From IMG/VR virus record IMGVR_UViG_2634166457_000009: a stretch of 10,933 bases of DNA; one strand, given 5' to 3'. This document shows, piece by piece, positions 95 through 10,933 of the stretch. Below the pieces are notes generated by a model. It was not told the DNA's origin and did no database searches. It saw nothing but the letters and a program-made list of their open reading frames with translations. The position numbers and the translations under genes were made by a program. Position 1 is the first letter of the stretch, and every line of letters starts with the position of its first letter. The stretch is from a virus (Duplodnaviria > Heunggongvirae > Uroviricota > Caudoviricetes).

Positions 95-97
<3 letters not shown>
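1..97 (-). pseudogene. yeeJ: Downstream continuation of the yeeJ-like adhesin coding sequence, displaced by one frame relative to ORF 95..3682; continues past the window edge
   Basis: Reverse complement of 1..93 translates in the alternate frame to GIAITQANGEAHVTLKGKKAGTHTVTATLGN, the same Ig-like repeat pattern as inside the ORF (e.g. GVAIASLTGTLAGTHMITARLANSN). The main frame ends at TAA (97..95) immediately after an A4 run (plus-strand CTTTTC, 98..103). Confidence 0.6.
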
Positions 98-3682
<3,585 letters not shown>

Positions 3683-3873
3683 GCTTACCTTCCCTGAACG
3701 AGCTAACATAAATGCGCCCTTTCTAGCACAGCGAAAAAAAGTAAATCCTGATAGCAATATGATTGAAAATTAATAACTTTTCGTTAAGCAGTTTTGGGTG
3801 TGAGTTGCAAGAGGGGAGACTACTGAATTACTCAAGTTTTATAATCGAGGGGAAAATGGTGATGGCGTCCATA

Positions 3874-3908
3874 GCAAAACGCCCTCAACCATAAAGGTCG
3901 AGGGCGCT
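3874..3908 (-). terminator. Rho-independent terminator downstream of tRNA-Asn
   Basis: On the minus strand GCGCCCTC-(13 nt loop)-GAGGGCG followed by TTTT; 7-bp GC-rich stem at 3880..3886 / 3900..3906, about 90 nt past the tRNA 3' end. Confidence 0.5.
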
Positions 3909-3994
3909 TAAGATGTCAAAAACCCGCTATCCGTTAAAAAGCAATGCTCAACTAAGGTCAGTGACATTGCGCTAAAAAGCGAATTTTTAGAATT

Positions 3995-4070
3995 TGGCTC
4001 CTCTGACTGGACTCGAACCAGTGACATACGGATTAACAGTCCGCCGTTCTACCGACTGAACTACAGAGGA
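3995..4070 (-). tRNA. asnT: tRNA-Asn (anticodon GUU), 76 nt including CCA
   Basis: Reverse complement reads TCCTCTGTAGTTCAGTCGGTAGAACGGCGGACTGTTAATCCGTATGTCACTGGTTCGAGTCCAGTCAGAGGAGCCA, matching E. coli tRNA-Asn; anticodon loop CU-GUU-AA. Symbol asnT assigned from its position between yeeJ and mtfA. Confidence 0.95.
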
Positions 4071-4088
4071 ATCATGTGAACGGGGCGC

Positions 4089-4117
4089 ATATTACTTAGC
4101 GGTACCTTGTCTGTCAA
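4089..4117 (-). promoter_or_regulatory. Sigma70 promoter for tRNA-Asn with GC-rich discriminator
   Basis: Minus strand: TTGACA (4117..4112), 17-nt spacer, TAATAT (4094..4089), then GCGCCCCG discriminator; tRNA 5' end 18 nt downstream of the -10. Consensus -35, optimal spacing and GC discriminator are typical of stringently controlled tRNA promoters. Confidence 0.6.
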
Positions 4118-4170
4118 CACTAAATTTCATAAGTCATTTCAATTGGTTAATTAATCTGCAAAGTTGTTAA

Positions 4171-4968
4171 TTAATGAACATTCGTCGCCGAAAACGAGTC
4201 TGTATCATTAGCGTGATGCAGTCTCTGCAAAGGATCTTGTTGATAAAATTGGCAGAAACGTTGCCACAATGAAGGGAAACGAGGAGCAAAAAGTTCTGGG
4301 GCGCTAAAGAAATATTCAGAAAGTACGGCAAAACATTCAGCAGGATCACTGGCAGCATAAGCATCAATGCTCGCCGCATTCTCGCCAACCAATTCGATTT
4401 CTTCCTGAATGTTGTTCATTGCAGCATGAAGATCGTGTTCCCAGCCAGCAACCTCACGCAACGGAATAAAGGGAACTCCGCTGGCGCGATCGCCGTTACG
4501 GGTGTCCAGCTTATGAGCGACTTCATGAATAATCAGGTTAAAACCAGAAGCATCAAAAGAATCTTGTATATCCAACCAGTTCAAAACGATAGGCCCTTGC
4601 TGCCAGCTCTGACCTGACTGAACAATACGTTGGTTATGCACCAGACCGATATCGTCTTCCCATTCATCATCGACCACAAATGGCGCAGGATAAATTAAGA
4701 CTTCATGAAAACCATCCAGCCATTCCAGTCCTAACTCCAGAACGGGCAGGCAAAATAGAAGTGCTATCCGGCAGCTTCTTAATGAATCCAGTTCAAAGCC
4801 CTGTAAAGGAACAAGCCGCTTTTGCTGTAAAAAACGTTCGGCAAGAGTGACTAATTTGCTTTGTTCCTGTTCCGTCAGACACGTTAAAAGGGGGATCGAT
4901 AGTGCTTCCTGCCAGGGAAGGGCAGTTTGATGTGCTGATTCTTGTACTTTCCAGGGCCACTTAATCAT
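4171..4968 (-). CDS. mtfA: MtfA (Mlc titration factor A), zinc-dependent peptidase, 265 aa
   Basis: ORF track 4171..5007 begins at GTG; the annotated-like start is ATG at 4968 ([14 protein letters not shown]...). HEVAHKLD HExxH metalloprotease motif present. Located between asnT and serU as in E. coli. Confidence 0.9.
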
Positions 4969-5061
4969 CGTTTTGCTCGCAAACTCGTCACTTGAACAAA
5001 ATTGCACGGACAGGGACTGTTAAAATGCCAAATTTCCTGGCATCATGGCAACCATCTGAAC

Positions 5062-5151
5062 GGAGAGATGCCGGAGCGGCTGAACGGACCGGTCTCGAAA
5101 ACCGGAGTGGGGGCAACTCCACCGGGGGTTCAAATCCCCCTCTCTCCGCCA
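5062..5151 (+). tRNA. serU: tRNA-Ser (anticodon CGA), 90 nt with long variable arm and encoded CCA
   Basis: GGAGAGATGCCGGAGCGGCTGAACGGACCGGTCTCGAAAACCGGAGTGGGGGCAACTCCACCGGGGGTTCAAATCCCCCTCTCTCCGCCA; anticodon loop CU-CGA-AA; class II tRNA. The two plus-strand ORFs overlapping it (4992..5177, 5002..5268) are artefacts. Confidence 0.95.
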
Positions 5152-5196: not shown

Positions 5197-5227
5197 CTTG
5201 GAATTACTTGGAATATTTTCTTGGAAT
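5197..5227. repeat. Three direct repeats of CTTGGAAT (starts 5197, 5207, 5220), candidate arm-type integrase binding sites of attL
   Basis: aCTTGGAATtaCTTGGAATattttCTTGGAATatt; spacing 10 and 13 bp, immediately prophage-side of the tRNA-Ser 3' end and overlapping the last codons and stop of int. Lambda attP/attL P' arms carry tandem arm-type sites in this position. Confidence 0.4.
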
Positions 5228-6490: not shown

Positions 6491-8932
6491 TTAAAAATCA
6501 GCCTGACTCGGGATCAGTTTTTGCCAGATAGCTGAAACGTATTTTGCCTGGTAACGAGCGTCATCAAGTGCATTATGGCGCTCACCTTCGAATGGGATAG
6601 CAGTTCTGGCATCGAAGTCTATGGCTTTCCCCAGCTCAACGATTGTGCGTACATCGCGATCGTTGCAGTAGCGCCACGGGCAGGGGATACCCTGTCGTTC
6701 GTATGAACGGCGTAAAATCACGTTGTCGAAGTTGGCCCCATTACCCCAGACCTGAACAAAAAATTCACCGGAGTTTTCGTCGATAAATTCCCGCAATTGC
6801 AGTAGTGCATCATCTAACGGGATTTCATCGGTCATAATGGCAGACTGCGCTTCACGTGATTGCTTCAGCCACCATTTAATGACGTCACGATCAATGACTC
6901 CGCCAGCAGTATCCAGATCGATGGTCTTGCTAAATTCCGGTCCCATATCTCCGGTTTGTGGATCGAAAAATATTGCGCCTATTGAGATAATCGGGGCATC
7001 GGGATTTTTTCCCATGGTTTCAAGGTCGATCATCAGATGAATCCCCGTTCTGCTGGTGGATGTGAGCTTATGATGACCATTCACCTTAATTAAGGGATCT
7101 GTCGACTCGCCAGTTTTATTATCGCTGGCGTGATGCTGATTGCCGCCAGGGTTCTCCTTGTGTGGATGTTCAGCGCCTTCCATTTCCTCCGTATCATTTT
7201 CCTGAACTTCAACCTGATTCTCTTCATCGAATGTTTCCTGGTATGTTGCGTCGCCCATCACCGCGCCACAATCAGGGCAGTTGCCGCCACCGCTCTGACC
7301 GCAGACGGTGCAGACTTTTTCCGGTTCCTGTTGCGCTACTGGTTCGGATTGTTTCGTTTCTGGCTCGTTTTGTAACGCATTTGGGCTGTTTTGTTCCGCT
7401 TTTTGGTCGTTCCGTTCCGATTCATGCTGGTTCTGGTTCACAGAATCGCGAGTCTGGATCCCCTTGACCCATTTCGGATCATTAGGGTCGCTAATCCCCT
7501 CAACAAATTCACCACGCGATACAGCAAGTAACTTATCGGCGTCAGGCTGGCTGATATTGGCTGCCTGCATAATTTTGTTTACTTCGTCAGCGGTGACTTT
7601 TACTTGGTTAGCGGAACTCACCTGCGACTGAGCATCCAGCGACTGCGCGTTCTGGCAATGTTCAGTTGTATCCGGTTCCATTGTTTCAGTTGTTGCCTGT
7701 TCACCTGCCATTGCGTCAGATGGTTGTGGTTTTTCTTCTTCTGTTTCACGCTCAGTAACCACCTCGCGGTTAATTTCTTCCAGGATATCTTTTTCCGGCG
7801 TATGCCGGGCAGCTGTGAGAGTTTCCTTGCTGGGGTTCTCGTGATCTGTTTCCGTCAAATAGGCGTTGATATACCCCTGAAGGCGTCCCGGGTAGTGATA
7901 AAATTCAGGGTGTGCGCTTCGGATAAGTGCAAAAATAGCGGCGCGGGAATAGTCCAGAATACCCGGGGTTGCACGAAGTGCTGCGGACCATTCTTTGAAC
8001 GGACTTTCTTTTTTCAGGACGACTTTTTTTGCGCGACGATAAACGCTGCCCGGAATTTCATAAATATTAAAATCCATCGGAAGTGTGGCTGCTGCAATCT
8101 CCACATCCAGTGTGTCGAGGGTGTGTACTAAATTCGGATTGCGATCGGTTTTGTTCCCACCGCCAGCATTAGCACCGGAAGCCGTGCGGGTGATGCGTGA
8201 AACACGATTTCCTTTCATCCACTCTTTTGTCAGCAGACCCCGATCGGTGTAGTCAGCGCCCAGGTATGCTTCGAAAAAAGCAGTCATCAGTCCCAGGTCT
8301 GAATTACCAGGATTAGGGAAAACTTTGTCCGTGTCACGAACCAGTTTGTGGAGATCGCGAATTTCCAGTGGTTCGAGTTGCGCAGCTTTATTTGAGATGG
8401 CCAGCGCGGTAACGGCGGGAAGTTTTTCATCCTGTGCGTTATGTAATGCGCGCAGTTCGCCCCGCGAAACGTGTGTGATCGGTTTTTCGCTGCCGTGCTG
8501 TGCCAGCCATCGAACAGGCAGAATCTGACCTGAAACCGGCAGGAGCATGTTCTCCTCAATCTCAGTCATGTCTTCGCCGTTGACGTTGGTATTGTCAGTG
8601 CTGGCTGGTTTGTCCTGAACAGAGGGCGAGGGTGCGATAAGTACCATTGTGATACCATCTTCCCCGCCTTTTTCGTATCGGTTGCAGAATTCGGTATCAA
8701 ACACGCCTTCCGGAGGAAGGTCATTCACAACGGGTAAATGGACGCGAACAGGTTTTTTAAAATCCTCTTCGTCAAATCCGGCATCGTCCATTGCGACAAC
8801 ACCGCGTGATATTGCAACCGATAATTTTTTTGCTGTGCGCCAGTAAAAACCGCCTTTAATCCCAAGACGTTTTCTGACTTTGTCATTTTTGGCTTCGTAA
8901 TATAGTGCAATTTCTTCTTTATCAGCGCTCAT
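6491..8932 (-). CDS. Large prophage exonuclease, 813 aa: RecE-like (exodeoxyribonuclease VIII-type) N-terminal and central region, C4 zinc-ribbon motif, acidic Q/E-rich linker, C-terminal DnaQ-like DEDDh 3'-5' exonuclease domain
   Basis: C-terminal motifs HLMIDLETMG (Exo I), VWGNGANFDNV (Exo II), ERHNALDDARYQAKY (Exo III, DEDDh). CTVCGQSGGGNCPDCG zinc ribbon. Segments such as NTNVNGEDMTEIEENMLLP and SRGEFVEGISDPNDPKWVKGIQTRD resemble Rac RecE as I recall it (not verified). ATG at 8932 with GAGG 9 nt upstream. Confidence 0.85.
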   Translation of the reverse strand: MSADKEEIALYYEAKNDKVRKRLGIKGGFYWRTAKKLSVAISRGVVAMDDAGFDEEDFKKPVRVHLPVVNDLPPEGVFDTEFCNRYEKGGEDGITMVLIAPSPSVQDKPASTDNTNVNGEDMTEIEENMLLPVSGQILPVRWLAQHGSEKPITHVSRGELRALHNAQDEKLPAVTALAISNKAAQLEPLEIRDLHKLVRDTDKVFPNPGNSDLGLMTAFFEAYLGADYTDRGLLTKEWMKGNRVSRITRTASGANAGGGNKTDRNPNLVHTLDTLDVEIAAATLPMDFNIYEIPGSVYRRAKKVVLKKESPFKEWSAALRATPGILDYSRAAIFALIRSAHPEFYHYPGRLQGYINAYLTETDHENPSKETLTAARHTPEKDILEEINREVVTERETEEEKPQPSDAMAGEQATTETMEPDTTEHCQNAQSLDAQSQVSSANQVKVTADEVNKIMQAANISQPDADKLLAVSRGEFVEGISDPNDPKWVKGIQTRDSVNQNQHESERNDQKAEQNSPNALQNEPETKQSEPVAQQEPEKVCTVCGQSGGGNCPDCGAVMGDATYQETFDEENQVEVQENDTEEMEGAEHPHKENPGGNQHHASDNKTGESTDPLIKVNGHHKLTSTSRTGIHLMIDLETMGKNPDAPIISIGAIFFDPQTGDMGPEFSKTIDLDTAGGVIDRDVIKWWLKQSREAQSAIMTDEIPLDDALLQLREFIDENSGEFFVQVWGNGANFDNVILRRSYERQGIPCPWRYCNDRDVRTIVELGKAIDFDARTAIPFEGERHNALDDARYQAKYVSAIWQKLIPSQADF

Positions 8933-9009: not shown

Positions 9010-9213
9010 TTACGGTGCTGTTTTAAGTCCTGCCGGGACTTCGTTATTATCCATGCGAATAACTTTATCGACCGGATAACAGTTACCGGGAATTTTCTGT
9101 TCCGCTGCGGCAGCCATGCACTCTTTCATTGAGCCATATATACCAGTAACCACATCAACCGGTTCGCCCGTATTAAGAAAAGCAGTCAGAACGAGTGCGA
9201 ATGCTGTATTCAT
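9010..9213 (-). CDS. Hypothetical small protein, 67 aa, with hydrophobic N-terminus (possible signal peptide or membrane anchor) and two Cys
   Basis: MNTAFALVLTAFLNTGEPVDVVTGIYGSMKECMAAAAEQKIPGNCYPVDKVIRMDNNEVPAGLKTAP; start chosen at the internal ATG (9213..9211), which has AAGGA 8 nt upstream and overlaps the upstream stop as ATGA. The longer track ORF (to 9267) has a poor RBS. Confidence 0.5.
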   Translation of the reverse strand: MNTAFALVLTAFLNTGEPVDVVTGIYGSMKECMAAAAEQKIPGNCYPVDKVIRMDNNEVPAGLKTAP

Positions 9214-9398
9214 TGCCAGCGTCCTTTTTGCGTCGGGCGTAAACGGGCCAGCATTGAAGCAATACATATCTCATTTGATGAATCTGGCTCATGCTTTATC
9301 TGACTAATGGCATCCTCAATAAAGTTTTTATCGCCAGTGATAACGCCAATTTCAAAACGGGTCTCAGGCGTAGTGGAATTGAGTAATAACGTTTCCAT
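9210..9398 (-). CDS. Hypothetical small protein, 62 aa
   Basis: ATG at 9398 with GAGGA 9 nt upstream; stop TGA overlaps the start of the next ORF (ATGA); sits 10 nt downstream of the rha stop in the same operon orientation. No recognised motifs. Confidence 0.45.
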   Translation of the reverse strand: METLLLNSTTPETRFEIGVITGDKNFIEDAISQIKHEPDSSNEICIASMLARLRPTQKGRWQ

Positions 9399-9408
9399 TA
9401 TCGCGTCC

Positions 9409-9966
9409 TCAACGAGTAAATTTAAGTAACTGCTCTACGGTCATATTTTTAATTGCGCCCGGATTTACAAGAGTCCATCCCTGTTTTTCCAGATAAAAGC
9501 GGAAGGTATCCAGGGTGCAGACCATTGCGCCGTCAGGAACGGTTTCAGTGAATTCAACATTGCCGAATTTGTCGAAGTGAACAACCAGAGTGCGTCCATC
9601 TCCCGGAATAATTTTGTCAGCGGGTGGGGTATTATTCTGACGCAGCTCTGCCTCCATGCGGTCGAACTCAGCGATGTAGGCCTCTTTGAATGCAGCGGCT
9701 TTTTTACCAGTGAAGCCCATCACCAGGAAAACGAAGCCGTTTTTGGTGATTTGGAACATTGGGAGTTTGCGTCCGGTTGAGTCGGTGTATTCGCTCGACA
9801 CAAAATTGTGCTCAGTGAATTTTGCTGAACAGTCCAGATTGCGAATTTTATCCAACACTCGTTCGTGGCGTTTGCCAAAGAACTCGGCGATCGCAACAGA
9901 CGTAGTGACAGCGCGACCATTTTCGATGGTTACGTCAGGGTGAGAAAGGACAGGGATAGTAGCCAT
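9409..9966 (-). CDS. rha: Rha-family phage regulatory protein (Phage_pRha domain), 185 aa
   Basis: RAVTTSVAIAEFFGKRHERVLDKIRNLDC...NFVSSEYTDSTGRKLPMFQITKNGFVFLVMGFTGKKAAAFKEAYIAEFDRME matches the conserved Rha core. Start placed at ATG 9966 (MATIPVLSHPD...) with GAGG 8 nt upstream; the track ORF extends to 10260 but that extension contains a terminator-like hairpin. Confidence 0.8.
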   Translation of the reverse strand: MATIPVLSHPDVTIENGRAVTTSVAIAEFFGKRHERVLDKIRNLDCSAKFTEHNFVSSEYTDSTGRKLPMFQITKNGFVFLVMGFTGKKAAAFKEAYIAEFDRMEAELRQNNTPPADKIIPGDGRTLVVHFDKFGNVEFTETVPDGAMVCTLDTFRFYLEKQGWTLVNPGAIKNMTVEQLLKFTR

Positions 9967-10127
9967 GATGGCAGCCTCGTTAGTGAATTTGATTAACTCA
10001 CCACCGGAGGTAGCAATCTCATGGGTGGTGAGACGTACAGGGTTGCTACAACCGGTCACTAACGAACCCGGCCAGTCTTGCGACTGCCCCGCACGCCCCA
10101 CCATAATTTGAATGTGGCTGTGCATTA

Positions 10128-10160
10128 CGCATAAAAAAACCGCCTGAGCGCGGTTATGCG
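10128..10160 (-). terminator. Terminator-like hairpin with U7 tract in the leader upstream of rha
   Basis: Minus strand CGCATAA-CCGC-GCTCAG-GCGG-TTTTTTT-ATGCG: inner CCGC/GCGG stem (extendable by two A-U pairs) followed by seven U; outer arms CGCATAA/TTATGCG can also pair, leaving a 5-U bulge. Short stem, so weak. Confidence 0.3.
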
Positions 10161-10260
10161 CGTTAGTGAACATCGGGGTAGCAATCCCGGCACCCGTTTT
10201 ATGAGGTGCAGGTGCACTATAATTCCACCCGTTCTGGTTTTCAATAGCTACATTCAACAT

Positions 10261-10828
10261 TTTCTCTACCTTTCATCACCGAAGTGAACTTTGTTGATGC
10301 GGTGCCTGGTGCCTCCAGGTGACGTTAACCAGTTAACAATTAACGCCGGATACAGAGAATCCACCCATAACACTGTTTTTGGTTTTAACTGTTCCGCGTG
10401 CGCTTAGCCGCATTCACCGCATCACAAAATTCACTTTAAAAAGGGCGGCAGAGCAGTCACGGAGTAAAACTGATACCGCCAAACGTCACCAGAAAATTGA
10501 TAACAGAGGGCGTTGCAGCGGGGTTGTCACTTAAGCGTATGGTCAACCTGACAACCCGGTGTCCTCAACGGGGAAGGAATAACCACGCCATACTTACCGC
10601 CGCGCCATTTCGCGGAGTGCCACAACCGGAAGCGCACGGTCGACGAAAATTTAACGACAGGCTATCTATGAACCAGCAACCTCGCCGTGCGCTTTCGCGT
10701 TATGCTCTGACTTTTCAGAGAAATATCCTTTCAGTAAACTGTCAGTGCCGGATGTTCACCCGTGTCCGGCGCACGCACTCCACTTCACCCGTGGAGAACT
10801 CCTTAATTACCAACCCTCAGGAGGGTGA
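10261..10828. other. About 570-bp structured, apparently non-coding region between the rha leader and the next plus-strand ORF
   Basis: No ORF with a credible start/RBS on either strand: the 112-codon track ORF 10497..10835 starts at TTG and is Arg/Gln/Pro-rich, and minus-strand ORFs are under 27 codons. Contains a CCTGG/CCAGG hairpin (10305..10319), a GTTAAC tandem array (10324..10344), a GGCGG/CCGCC stem with U-tract on the minus strand (10438..10480) and twin hairpins (10747..10796). Confidence 0.4.
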
Positions 10829-10933
10829 ATGTTAAAATCAACTCTTATTGCTAAATGCCTTTATCAAAATCGCATGGTAAGCAGCATTTCAATAGGCGAG
10901 TCTGCAGTTAAAAGTATTTTCGAAGAGTACTTT
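10829..10933 (+). CDS. 5' end of an unidentified plus-strand gene (first 35 codons; continues beyond the window)
   Basis: AGGAGG at 10819..10824, 4-nt spacer, ATG at 10829; in-frame TGA immediately upstream; MLKSTLIAKCLYQNRMVSSISIGESAVKSIFEEYF open to the window end. Not in the ORF track because it is truncated. Confidence 0.4.
   Translation, partial: MLKSTLIAKCLYQNRMVSSISIGESAVKSIFEEYF

Follow-up and report, generated by a model that had tools for sequence, protein, structure and literature searches.

The window analysed here is a 10,933-nt stretch of a Caudoviricetes virus (IMG/VR virus record IMGVR_UViG_2634166457_000009), and the interval of interest, positions 9967-10828, lies between the start of the regulator gene rha at 9966 (minus strand) and a plus-strand start at 10829. 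An initial annotation had described it as coding-poor, GC-rich DNA packed with hairpins and short repeats in the early region of a prophage. The Rfam covariance-model scan that it had proposed detected three small RNA (sRNA) families at gathering thresholds, namely C4, IsrK and DicF. Prophage-encoded sRNAs, one of the options it had offered, were thereby confirmed, and all the functional content of the interval was found on the minus strand, not on the plus strand that it had read. The interval very likely belongs to the leftward early operon of a lambdoid prophage of the Qin/Rac-like type at a tRNA-Ser, of which it would be the untranslated, RNA-rich portion, made up of two known modules, the spacer of a dicBF operon and an isrK-C4-rha cassette. 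Apart from one undescribed conserved RNA domain of 115 nt, the elements of the interval are already known, and an apparently gene-free prophage stretch would then be a dense array of characterised regulatory RNAs.

None of the open reading frames (ORFs) of 9967-10828 has a coding signature, which bears out the view that no credible gene lies there; the sole long ORF, minus 9409..10260, was overlooked by the initial annotation and is open for 98 codons upstream of 9966. The hairpins and short repeats are real. Minus-strand RNA folds more stably than shuffled sequence, with z = -4.2 for 10209..9950 and z = -2.7 for 10830..10437 (the dicF spacer RNA). Direct repeats join 9978-9987 with 10161-10170 and 10009-10018 with 10177-10186, and inverted repeats join 9977-9986 with 10056-10065 (100%), 10627-10639 with 10685-10697, and 10290-10304 with 10415-10429. 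The GC-richness is weak (0.51 against 0.466 in the coding part of the prophage). When 9900-10933 was searched against Rfam at a permissive E<=10, the only additions were sub-threshold matches to STnc100 and c4-a1b1 and two chance small nucleolar RNA matches, and within the interval there was no plus-strand RNA family in Rfam and no conserved plus-strand ORF.

The isrK-C4-rha cassette

The cassette comprises the following features, all on the minus strand:

9409 to about 10275, minus: the isrK-C4-rha cassette (module 2; control region 9967-10275), of the P1 immI / Gifsy-1 isrK type
10244..10239 and 10221..10216, minus: isrK promoter of the sigma-70 type, -35 TTGAAA and -10 TATAGT with a 17-nt spacer, 10/12 consensus positions
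10133..10209, minus: IsrK sRNA, with an intrinsic terminator at 10155..10138 plus U-run and the decoy boxes a1 and b1
10184..10178 and 10169..10161, minus: target boxes a1 and b1, inside IsrK
10021..10108, minus: C4-type antisense RNA, with b' loop 10067..10056 and a' box 10050..10043
10010..10016, minus: target box a2 (UUGCUAC) in the rha leader, the exact complement of a'
9986..9977, minus: target box b2 (UCACUAACGA), overlapping the rha Shine-Dalgarno (SD) sequence GAGG 9978..9975
9409..9966, minus: rha, encoding a Rha-family anti-repressor-like regulator of 185 aa (ATG 9966..9964)
10276..10292, minus: left cassette junction, an imperfect direct repeat of 9423..9409

IsrK was assigned by its score (RF01394, 64.2 bits against a gathering threshold of 50), its own promoter, its intrinsic terminator and its place just upstream of a C4-type RNA and a regulator gene. 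The promoter ends 7 nt before the IsrK 5' end, with which its predicted start coincides, and its hexamers are kept in position in six diverse phages, including Gifsy-1, P1-like and Stx phages. The tandem of IsrK and C4, 24-45 nt apart, was found in all 14 diverse phages scanned, among them Gifsy-1, the P1-like D6 and RCS47, ST64B, phiP27, P88, and Stx, Klebsiella and Yersinia phages; P4 has both RNAs at a wider spacing. Hfq binding by IsrK and trans-activation of the translation of its own read-through mRNA have been described for Gifsy-1 only (PMC4825925). A 12-nt inverted repeat (92% complementary) joins 10108-10119, in the IsrK-C4 spacer, with 10246-10257, just upstream of the isrK -35, and would pair only in transcripts reading in from the dicBF operon.

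The C4 match spans the whole model (RF01695, positions 1-87 of 87) with 77.5 bits against a gathering threshold of 45. Across 16 homologues, that of the window included, all 432 pair cells of its helices were paired, compared with 32-49% in slid-partner controls, and 13 of the 27 pairs carried compensatory changes. The b' box is the C4 hairpin loop and a' the single strand after it, and each has two targets. Complementarity to b' extends over 10/10 positions in b2, which matches the loop at 10065..10056 completely, and over 9 in b1, while a' pairs with 7/7 positions of both a1 and a2. The SD sequence that b2 overlaps has its last base 8 nt before the AUG at 9966. Predicted duplexes reached -36.4 and -35.6 kcal/mol, compared with -23.4 and -20.9 kcal/mol for shuffled targets, and none of 500 shuffles was as good. 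In a set of 96 modules from IMG/VR and GenBank phages, with 26 distinct (b', a') combinations, the complement of the a' 7-mer recurred in both target regions in all 26 specificity types, and that of b' in most, a three-way covariation of the C4 boxes with their upstream and downstream targets. Some IMG/VR prophage contigs carry two isrK-C4-rha modules in tandem, or one full and one partial module; the a' box differs between the two copies in one locus (L010, 1501-2340 and 3031-3840) and the b' loop in another (L080, 1501-1738 and 1915-2769).

The coding onset of rha was located with a codon-position test on 52 unique relatives. Codons 1-98 of the long ORF had 37/38/37 variable sites at the three codon positions and a ratio of nonsynonymous to synonymous polymorphism (pN/pS) of 0.71, or 0.90 over C4; from codon 99 the counts were 44/34/81 with pN/pS 0.34, and then 36/20/58 with pN/pS 0.24. 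The block AGGAGGCTGCCATTATGGCTACT, comprising the SD sequence, the AUG and the first codons, is conserved among rha of the window, Stx2 phage F004, ST64B, icd of RCS47 and D6, and anrP of Gifsy-1. In distant modules the similarity starts at the IsrK 5' end, not at the ATG at 10260. Given the codon pattern, the conserved SD/AUG block and this onset of similarity, 9966 is therefore the regulated start of rha, as the initial annotation had placed it. The annotations of F004 and phi191 use the equivalent start, and the Pfam Phage_pRha domain begins 21 aa after it. In phi191 an Rfam sRNA-Xcc1 match (L090 2023-2106; 79.6 bits, gathering 53) lies between rha and a second anti-repressor gene.

The dicBF spacer and the structured domain upstream of DicF

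To the right of the cassette, and in one case to its left, lie the features of the dicBF operon, again all on the minus strand:

about 10276 to beyond 10828, minus: module 1, the long untranslated region of the dicBF operon that contains dicF
10698..10828, minus: upstream part of the dicBF spacer, continuing beyond the window end
10697..10685 with 10639..10627, minus: upstream helix, an inverted repeat of 13 nt, 92% complementary
10512..10626, minus: structured 5' domain of long DicF, conserved more widely than any other part of the spacer, DicF included
10626..10619 with 10519..10512, minus: predicted closing helix P0
10615..10611 with 10604..10600, minus: predicted hairpin P1
within 10588..10569, minus: predicted variable hairpin P2 with a CU-rich loop
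10557..10549 with 10529..10521, minus: predicted helix P3
10592..10588 (UAUGG) with 10542..10538 (P3 loop), minus: predicted pseudoknot
10438..10495, minus: DicF sRNA and the U-run of its terminator (53-nt form 10495..10443)
10290..10431, minus: remnant of the dicF-dicB spacer, STnc100-like, with a 15-bp closing helix 10429..10415 with 10304..10290
9210..9398, minus: dicB (62 aa; Pfam DicB at full length), now downstream of rha

Over 531 nt (10285-10815) the window is 96.8% identical to the Qin prophage of K-12, from 21 nt after ydfC to 18 nt before dicB; the ydfC-dicF spacer up to 10815 is 97% identical, and the dicF-dicB spacer has kept 157 of its 174 nt. DicF was matched at 10494..10443 with 76.7 bits (RF00039, gathering 48), and its 53 nt align with those of K-12 dicF without a difference. 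The setting of a dicBF operon is given in the window by this K-12-like spacer and by dicB (9398..9210); ydfABC and the repressor are found only in relatives, beyond the window. Three features differ from K-12 Qin: an 870-bp isrK-C4-rha cassette stands 18 nt before dicB, an extra module replaces the ydfC-proximal sequence beyond 10815, and the prophage is at serU with int and exonuclease genes intact. The next gene on the minus strand in phage Evi has its end at about 11040 in window coordinates.

In K-12 the ydfC-dicB interval is a long untranslated region from which RNase III and RNase E yield DicF of 190, 72 and 53 nt (PMC5069750; bioRxiv 10.1101/2023.04.14.536235). The polycistronic dicBp transcript is cut to the 190-nt form by RNase III and to the 53-nt form by RNase E (bioRxiv 10.1101/2023.04.14.536235), and the 72-nt form arises from an RNase III 3' cut (PMC5069750). 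In the window, the helix 10627..10697 is a likely RNase III substrate for the 5' end of 190-nt DicF, which would be at about 10632, at the foot of this helix, because that position lies 190 nt upstream of the DicF 3' end at 10443. For 72-nt DicF, the 3' end made by RNase III is projected to near 10424, inside the closing helix of the spacer remnant.

Assignment of this remnant to STnc100 (RF02076) was rejected, with 38 bits against a gathering threshold of 47 over model positions 22-154 of 206; the remnant is a related but sub-threshold sequence, and the K-12 dicF-dicB spacer scores 34.4 bits against the same model. Another rejected candidate is the "partial DicB, missing C-terminus" pseudogene called there by the Prokaryotic Genome Annotation Pipeline (PGAP; L001 3395-3478, about window 10290-10373), treated here as an annotation artefact: the translated fragment is unlike DicB, and in K-12 the sequence is untranslated spacer upstream of dicB.

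The edges of the cassette suggest that a short, conserved sequence at the boundary served for recombination. What is shared with the window is limited to 10282-10933 in phages Evi and PPompW and to 9900-10208 in Stx2a phages, so that a mosaic joint lies near 10282; the K-12 homology ends at about 10285. Repeats of 15-17 nt flank the cassette, at 10292..10276 (AAAGTTCACTTCGGTGA) and 9423..9409 (AAATTTACTCGTTGA), and both resemble the K-12 sequence just 5' of dicB. The K-12-type SD and start of dicB (GTTGAGGACGCGATAATG) overlap the stop codon of rha, which lies inside the SD sequence (window 9403-9423).

The 115-nt domain upstream of DicF is more widespread. Copies with 77-89% identity were found in Stx2c phages, Ayreon, 2H10 and an Actinobacillus (Pasteurellaceae) phage. 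P1/P7 have the domain as well, in the ban leader about 60 nt after the C1-controlled promoter Pban; a genome scan located it in Escherichia, Shigella, Citrobacter, Trabulsiella, Erwinia and Izhakiella. Rfam at E<=10 returned nothing in 10495-10828, the domain included. In 21 non-redundant sequences the predicted pairing held in 94.3% of the cells, compared with 29-56% for slid partners; both sides have changed in 9 of 27 pairs, and none of 500 shuffles had as many. The support for the predicted structure of the domain is moderate, because it was derived from these same, rather similar sequences. P2 showed register shifts in the MAFFT alignment, so each sequence was folded alone, and the hairpin formed with differing stems in most sequences. 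An alternative pseudoknot extension (GGCG with CGCC) fits the data but would compete with two P1 pairs. In the window, P2 (10569-10588, minus) carries a G-to-U change, GCGUGG in place of the GCGGGG of most copies, by which one pair is broken and the hairpin becomes weaker (-3.3 against -8.1 kcal/mol).

A single hairpin followed by a U-run, i.e. an intrinsic terminator, stands 20-58 nt after the domain in 119 of 120 instances. At least ten classes of linker plus terminator follow the domain, and the Rfam DicF threshold was reached in only 2 of 15 scanned domain loci. Our best guess, to which we would give an even chance, is that the domain could be a 5' scaffold that defines and stabilises DicF-type precursors; the domain would be bounded by the projected RNase III end on its 5' side and by the RNase E cut on its 3' side. 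Alternatively, it could represent a class of cis-acting phage RNA not described before and control the intrinsic terminator that follows it, by put-like antitermination without a protein or as an attenuator responsive to a factor or ligand, and this we consider unlikely. The domain would then decide between ending at a DicF-type sRNA and reading on into rha, dicB, the recombination genes and int, and in P1/P7 its target would be the ban operon. Like putL/putR of HK022, it is a structured RNA that precedes terminators in an early operon under repressor control; unlike them, it is predicted to have 3-4 helices and a pseudoknot in 115 nt, whereas put has two stems in about 70 nt, and against the HK022 genome it gave chance-level matches only, with no similarity to putL or putR. 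A cis-acting antitermination RNA, which the initial annotation had suggested for the interval, is not supported otherwise and survives only as this minority hypothesis for 10626..10512. In either case the domain is a target for the study of DicF-type sRNA production or of the passage of early-operon terminators. In Escherichia phage PhiR5_2 (L104, about 590-640) it is precisely deleted between the P0 strands (GGTTGTG|AATAACAAC), and the upstream spacer, linker and terminator are kept.

Proposed mechanism and relation to known systems

By analogy with the experiments on P1/P7, P4 and Gifsy-1, on which the direction of regulation, the processing and the action of Rha would here depend, the cassette could operate as follows. 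Most transcripts from the isrK promoter (PisrK) would stop at the IsrK terminator, and an RNA reading through it would contain C4 and then rha. The b' and a' boxes of C4 would pair with b2 and a2, after processing or within the same molecule through a1/b1, and since this pairing covers the rha SD sequence, Rha would be kept untranslated. A member of the C4 family would be cut from a longer transcript by RNase P and would repress the gene that follows it. IsrK carries the a1/b1 boxes and therefore, when in excess, would compete for C4, opening rha to translation. As Rha-family proteins are anti-repressor-type regulators, the cassette would probably gate a step to induction or an interference with other phages; the C4/IsrK pair would in that case control an anti-repressor able to tip the prophage towards induction. 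The gene dicB, directly behind rha, could be reached from PisrK as well as from the operon promoter. DicF, with its own intrinsic terminator, would be made from the operon transcript and act on host mRNAs as in K-12, that is, as an Hfq-dependent antisense sRNA repressing ftsZ and other host mRNAs, by which host cell division would be arrested and host metabolism rewired.

The closest parallel is the isrK-orf45(STnc1160)-anrP locus of Gifsy-1 in Salmonella, for which the IsrK mechanism has been published (Hershko-Shalev et al. 2016, PMC4825925). Both loci have the same order of promoter, terminated IsrK of 77 nt, spacer of about 25 nt, C4-type RNA and regulator SD/AUG, with both RNAs above the Rfam gathering thresholds, and they share the distance to the leader AUG and the SD/AUG block. 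The IsrK and C4 tandem in Gifsy-1 identifies its orf45/STnc1160 as a C4 RNA. Here, in contrast, the protein is Rha, isrJ is missing downstream and antQ upstream, the cassette lies inside a dicBF operon and the box sequences are others.

The immI operon of P1/P7 reportedly consists of the c4 antisense RNA with its a1/b1 and a2/b2 targets, followed by icd and ant. The window shares with it the two single-stranded boxes of a C4 RNA, a pair of targets on either side of C4, a b2 box on the ribosome-binding site of the first gene, and specificity by box set; the P1-like RCS47 and D6 give the same IsrK and C4 matches and have the same SD, AUG and first codons. It differs in that icd and ant1/ant2 do not follow C4, rha replacing them after about 12 codons, in that the host element is lambdoid, and in that the a1/b1 RNA is a discrete terminated sRNA (IsrK). 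We therefore do not class the cassette as a strict P1-type immI operon. P4 shows Rfam matches for C4 at 8507..8420 and for isrK at 8692..8615, and its immunity likewise uses a processed antisense RNA with targets on both sides (seqA/seqC); its isrK-like and C4-like elements are more widely spaced, epsilon and alpha lie downstream, and its CI RNA acts mainly by transcription termination (PMC4825925).

Several points weigh against this interpretation. The RNA ends, the processing and the direction of regulation at this locus would follow from homology, and the published models differ, C4 being the repressing agent in P1 and IsrK the activating one in Gifsy-1. All 80 relatives retrieved have the long frame open, as do several distant phages, and therefore some translation through the IsrK/C4 region may take place. 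The orf45-like frame is fused in frame to rha, whereas its counterpart in Gifsy-1 ends at the start of anrP, stopping on the start codon itself (AUGA). BLASTP of the window Rha against Gifsy-1 AnrP gave no similarity, so conservation with the best-studied IsrK locus does not extend to the cargo protein; Rha is also unrelated to P1 Icd and Ant beyond the first 12 or so codons, and its anti-repressor role is a guess at the level of the family. Finally, the 115-nt domain has no part in the explanation.

Alternative readings and surroundings of the interval

The alternative that survives best would refine the proposed mechanism rather than replace it. A ribosome relay is plausible in which the leader is translated from the AUG at 10104..10102 into rha, carrying ribosomes through the structure and giving a 231-aa Rha beside the 185-aa form, like Ant1/Ant2 of P1; we hold it as a tentative possibility of some substance. 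This AUG is at nt 106 from the predicted transcription start, and the AUG of Gifsy-1 orf45, the translation of which is required for anrP expression (PMC4825925), is at A107. It belongs to a conserved AUGG in the 5' strand of C4, the C4-phase frame is fused in frame to rha in 8/8 Rha-type modules, and the hypervariable boxes are free of stops in the 80 relatives. Against this, no SD sequence precedes 10104, the AUG is buried within the 17-bp closing helix of C4, and pN/pS is 0.83 over the stretch, which leaves the peptide sequence unconstrained.

Quite improbable is a longer protein, i.e. that 9967-10260 is coding, that Rha has 283 aa from the ATG at 10260 with a real N-terminal Ash domain, and that the RNA matches are secondary. 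This is the reading of RefSeq, and it contests the claim of the initial annotation that no ORF with a credible start is present: in relatives, PGAP calls an 855-nt "Rha family phage regulatory protein" from the equivalent of 10260, and the two RefSeq relatives inspected have none of the three sRNAs annotated. The Pfam model Phage_ASH (PF10554) matches aa 14-108 of the long ORF with 66.7 bits (cut-off 26). The frame stays open in all 80 IMG/VR relatives despite heavy variation of the boxes, the indel observed being of one codon, and an ORF in the same phase runs through IsrK and C4 in ST64B, WGPS2, phiP27, P88, Stx1_132418 and Lys8385Vzw, in some of which its start lies another 350 nt upstream and it overlaps the stop codon of the gene before it. 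However, these 80 relatives were retrieved with the long ORF as query, so the set is biased towards open frames. The isrK promoter initiates downstream of the ATG at 10260, an intrinsic terminator lies inside the ORF, and distant similarity begins only at the IsrK 5' end. The PGAP call is thus argued here to be wrong.

The Ash domain itself very probably represents translated IsrK and C4/CI RNA genes. Its match in the window (9937-10221, minus) covers IsrK, C4 and the a2/b2 leader, and it likewise lies over both RNA genes in seven other phages (loci listed: L086, L089, L091, L096, L097). In P4 (L098 8330-8521) PF10554 matches the obsolete "cI protein" ORF of 1990 precisely where the CI RNA gene lies, a spurious protein reading like the one in the window; the P4 immunity factor is an RNA (references 45-47 of PMC4825925), and the real epsilon protein of P4 belongs to PF25738. 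Evolution of a protein-like kind was not seen: the 98 codons upstream of 9966 lack the third-position bias that dominates Rha, their pN/pS (0.71-0.90) compares with 0.24-0.34 in Rha, and the long frame is interrupted by stops in five phages (D6, RCS47, Klebsiella phage 020009, ZX5 and Gifsy-1) in which both RNAs are kept at >=59 bits. In the literature, Ash is handled as a protein domain of unknown function in Rha proteins of Stx phages, and one paper used it as a marker for P4 epsilon. The artefact would affect the domain-based classing of Stx-phage regulators and of P4-like satellites, and the RefSeq annotation of a common locus extends Rha by 98 codons of translated RNA genes. The probable RNA origin of Ash, the over-long Rha annotation and the unannotated long-DicF domain are by-products of this analysis.

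It is very improbable that the interval is a switch for immunity or regulation, with operators, divergent promoters and a transcript running rightward from a plus-strand TATAAT, as the initial annotation had considered. The perfect hexamer at 10218..10223 exists, and there are two weak plus-strand promoter-like sites (9/12 matches), but three promoter-like sites are not a strong excess over the 0.9 +/- 1.1 of shuffled sequences. The hexamer has no -35 and overlaps the -10 of the better (10/12), positionally conserved promoter of the opposite strand, which speaks against the rightward transcript, as does the plus strand's lack of RNA families and conserved ORFs. The repressor/cro-like pair lies elsewhere in relatives, more than 1.4 kb further right and beyond the window. 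Least credible of all is a decayed protein-coding gene in the spacer 10495-10828, an outcome that the initial annotation had also envisaged and that was not found: a 112-aa plus-strand ORF (10497..10835, TTG start) and a 36-aa minus-strand ORF (10637..10527) could be taken for its remains, but the former has no Pfam match, the spacer recurs as an untranslated region with 97-99% conservation in K-12 and many phages, its homologues differ by 5- and 7-nt indels and compensatory base-pair changes, and in one natural variant exactly the domain is missing from between the P0 strands.

The surroundings agree with the prophage early region that the initial annotation had assumed. The left flank is E. 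coli-like, with an inverse-autotransporter adhesin, tRNA-Asn, an M90 peptidase and tRNA-Ser(cga), after which the prophage begins; the flank matches the E. coli gene order yeeJ-asnT-mtfA-serU. The prophage genes all point leftward and encode an integrase, a DUF4224 xis-like protein, an 813-aa exonuclease VIII-type protein, a DUF1482 protein, DicB and Rha. Beyond the right end of the window, the operon of the closest RefSeq relatives goes on with a hypothetical gene, ydfC, ydfB, ydfA and a helix-turn-helix repressor divergent from ydaS/ydaT; dicB, DUF1482 and an exonuclease are found downstream in the relatives. The query 9900-10933 was covered to >=80% in about 300 of 5426 complete E. coli genomes.

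The plus-strand ORF 10829-10933 runs off the window, is oriented antisense to the dicBF operon and has a strong SD sequence (GGAGGG). Its annotation in RefSeq and in phage Evi is that of a hypothetical protein of 77-92 aa (phrog_10348, function not assigned), and in Evi its counterpart overlaps the 3' end of a 135-aa minus-strand gene. PHROG matches to this ORF and to the 98-codon extension of rha are evidence only of prior annotation by others. The tRNA-Ser(cga) gene (5062..5151) adjoins the prophage, with the integrase gene end at 5204. In the 813-aa exonuclease (6491-8932, minus) an exonuclease VIII (RecE-type) segment is joined to an Rv2179c-like 3'-5' exoribonuclease domain at the C-terminus, and the adhesin ORF (window 95-5007) encodes 1220 aa from a TTG start.

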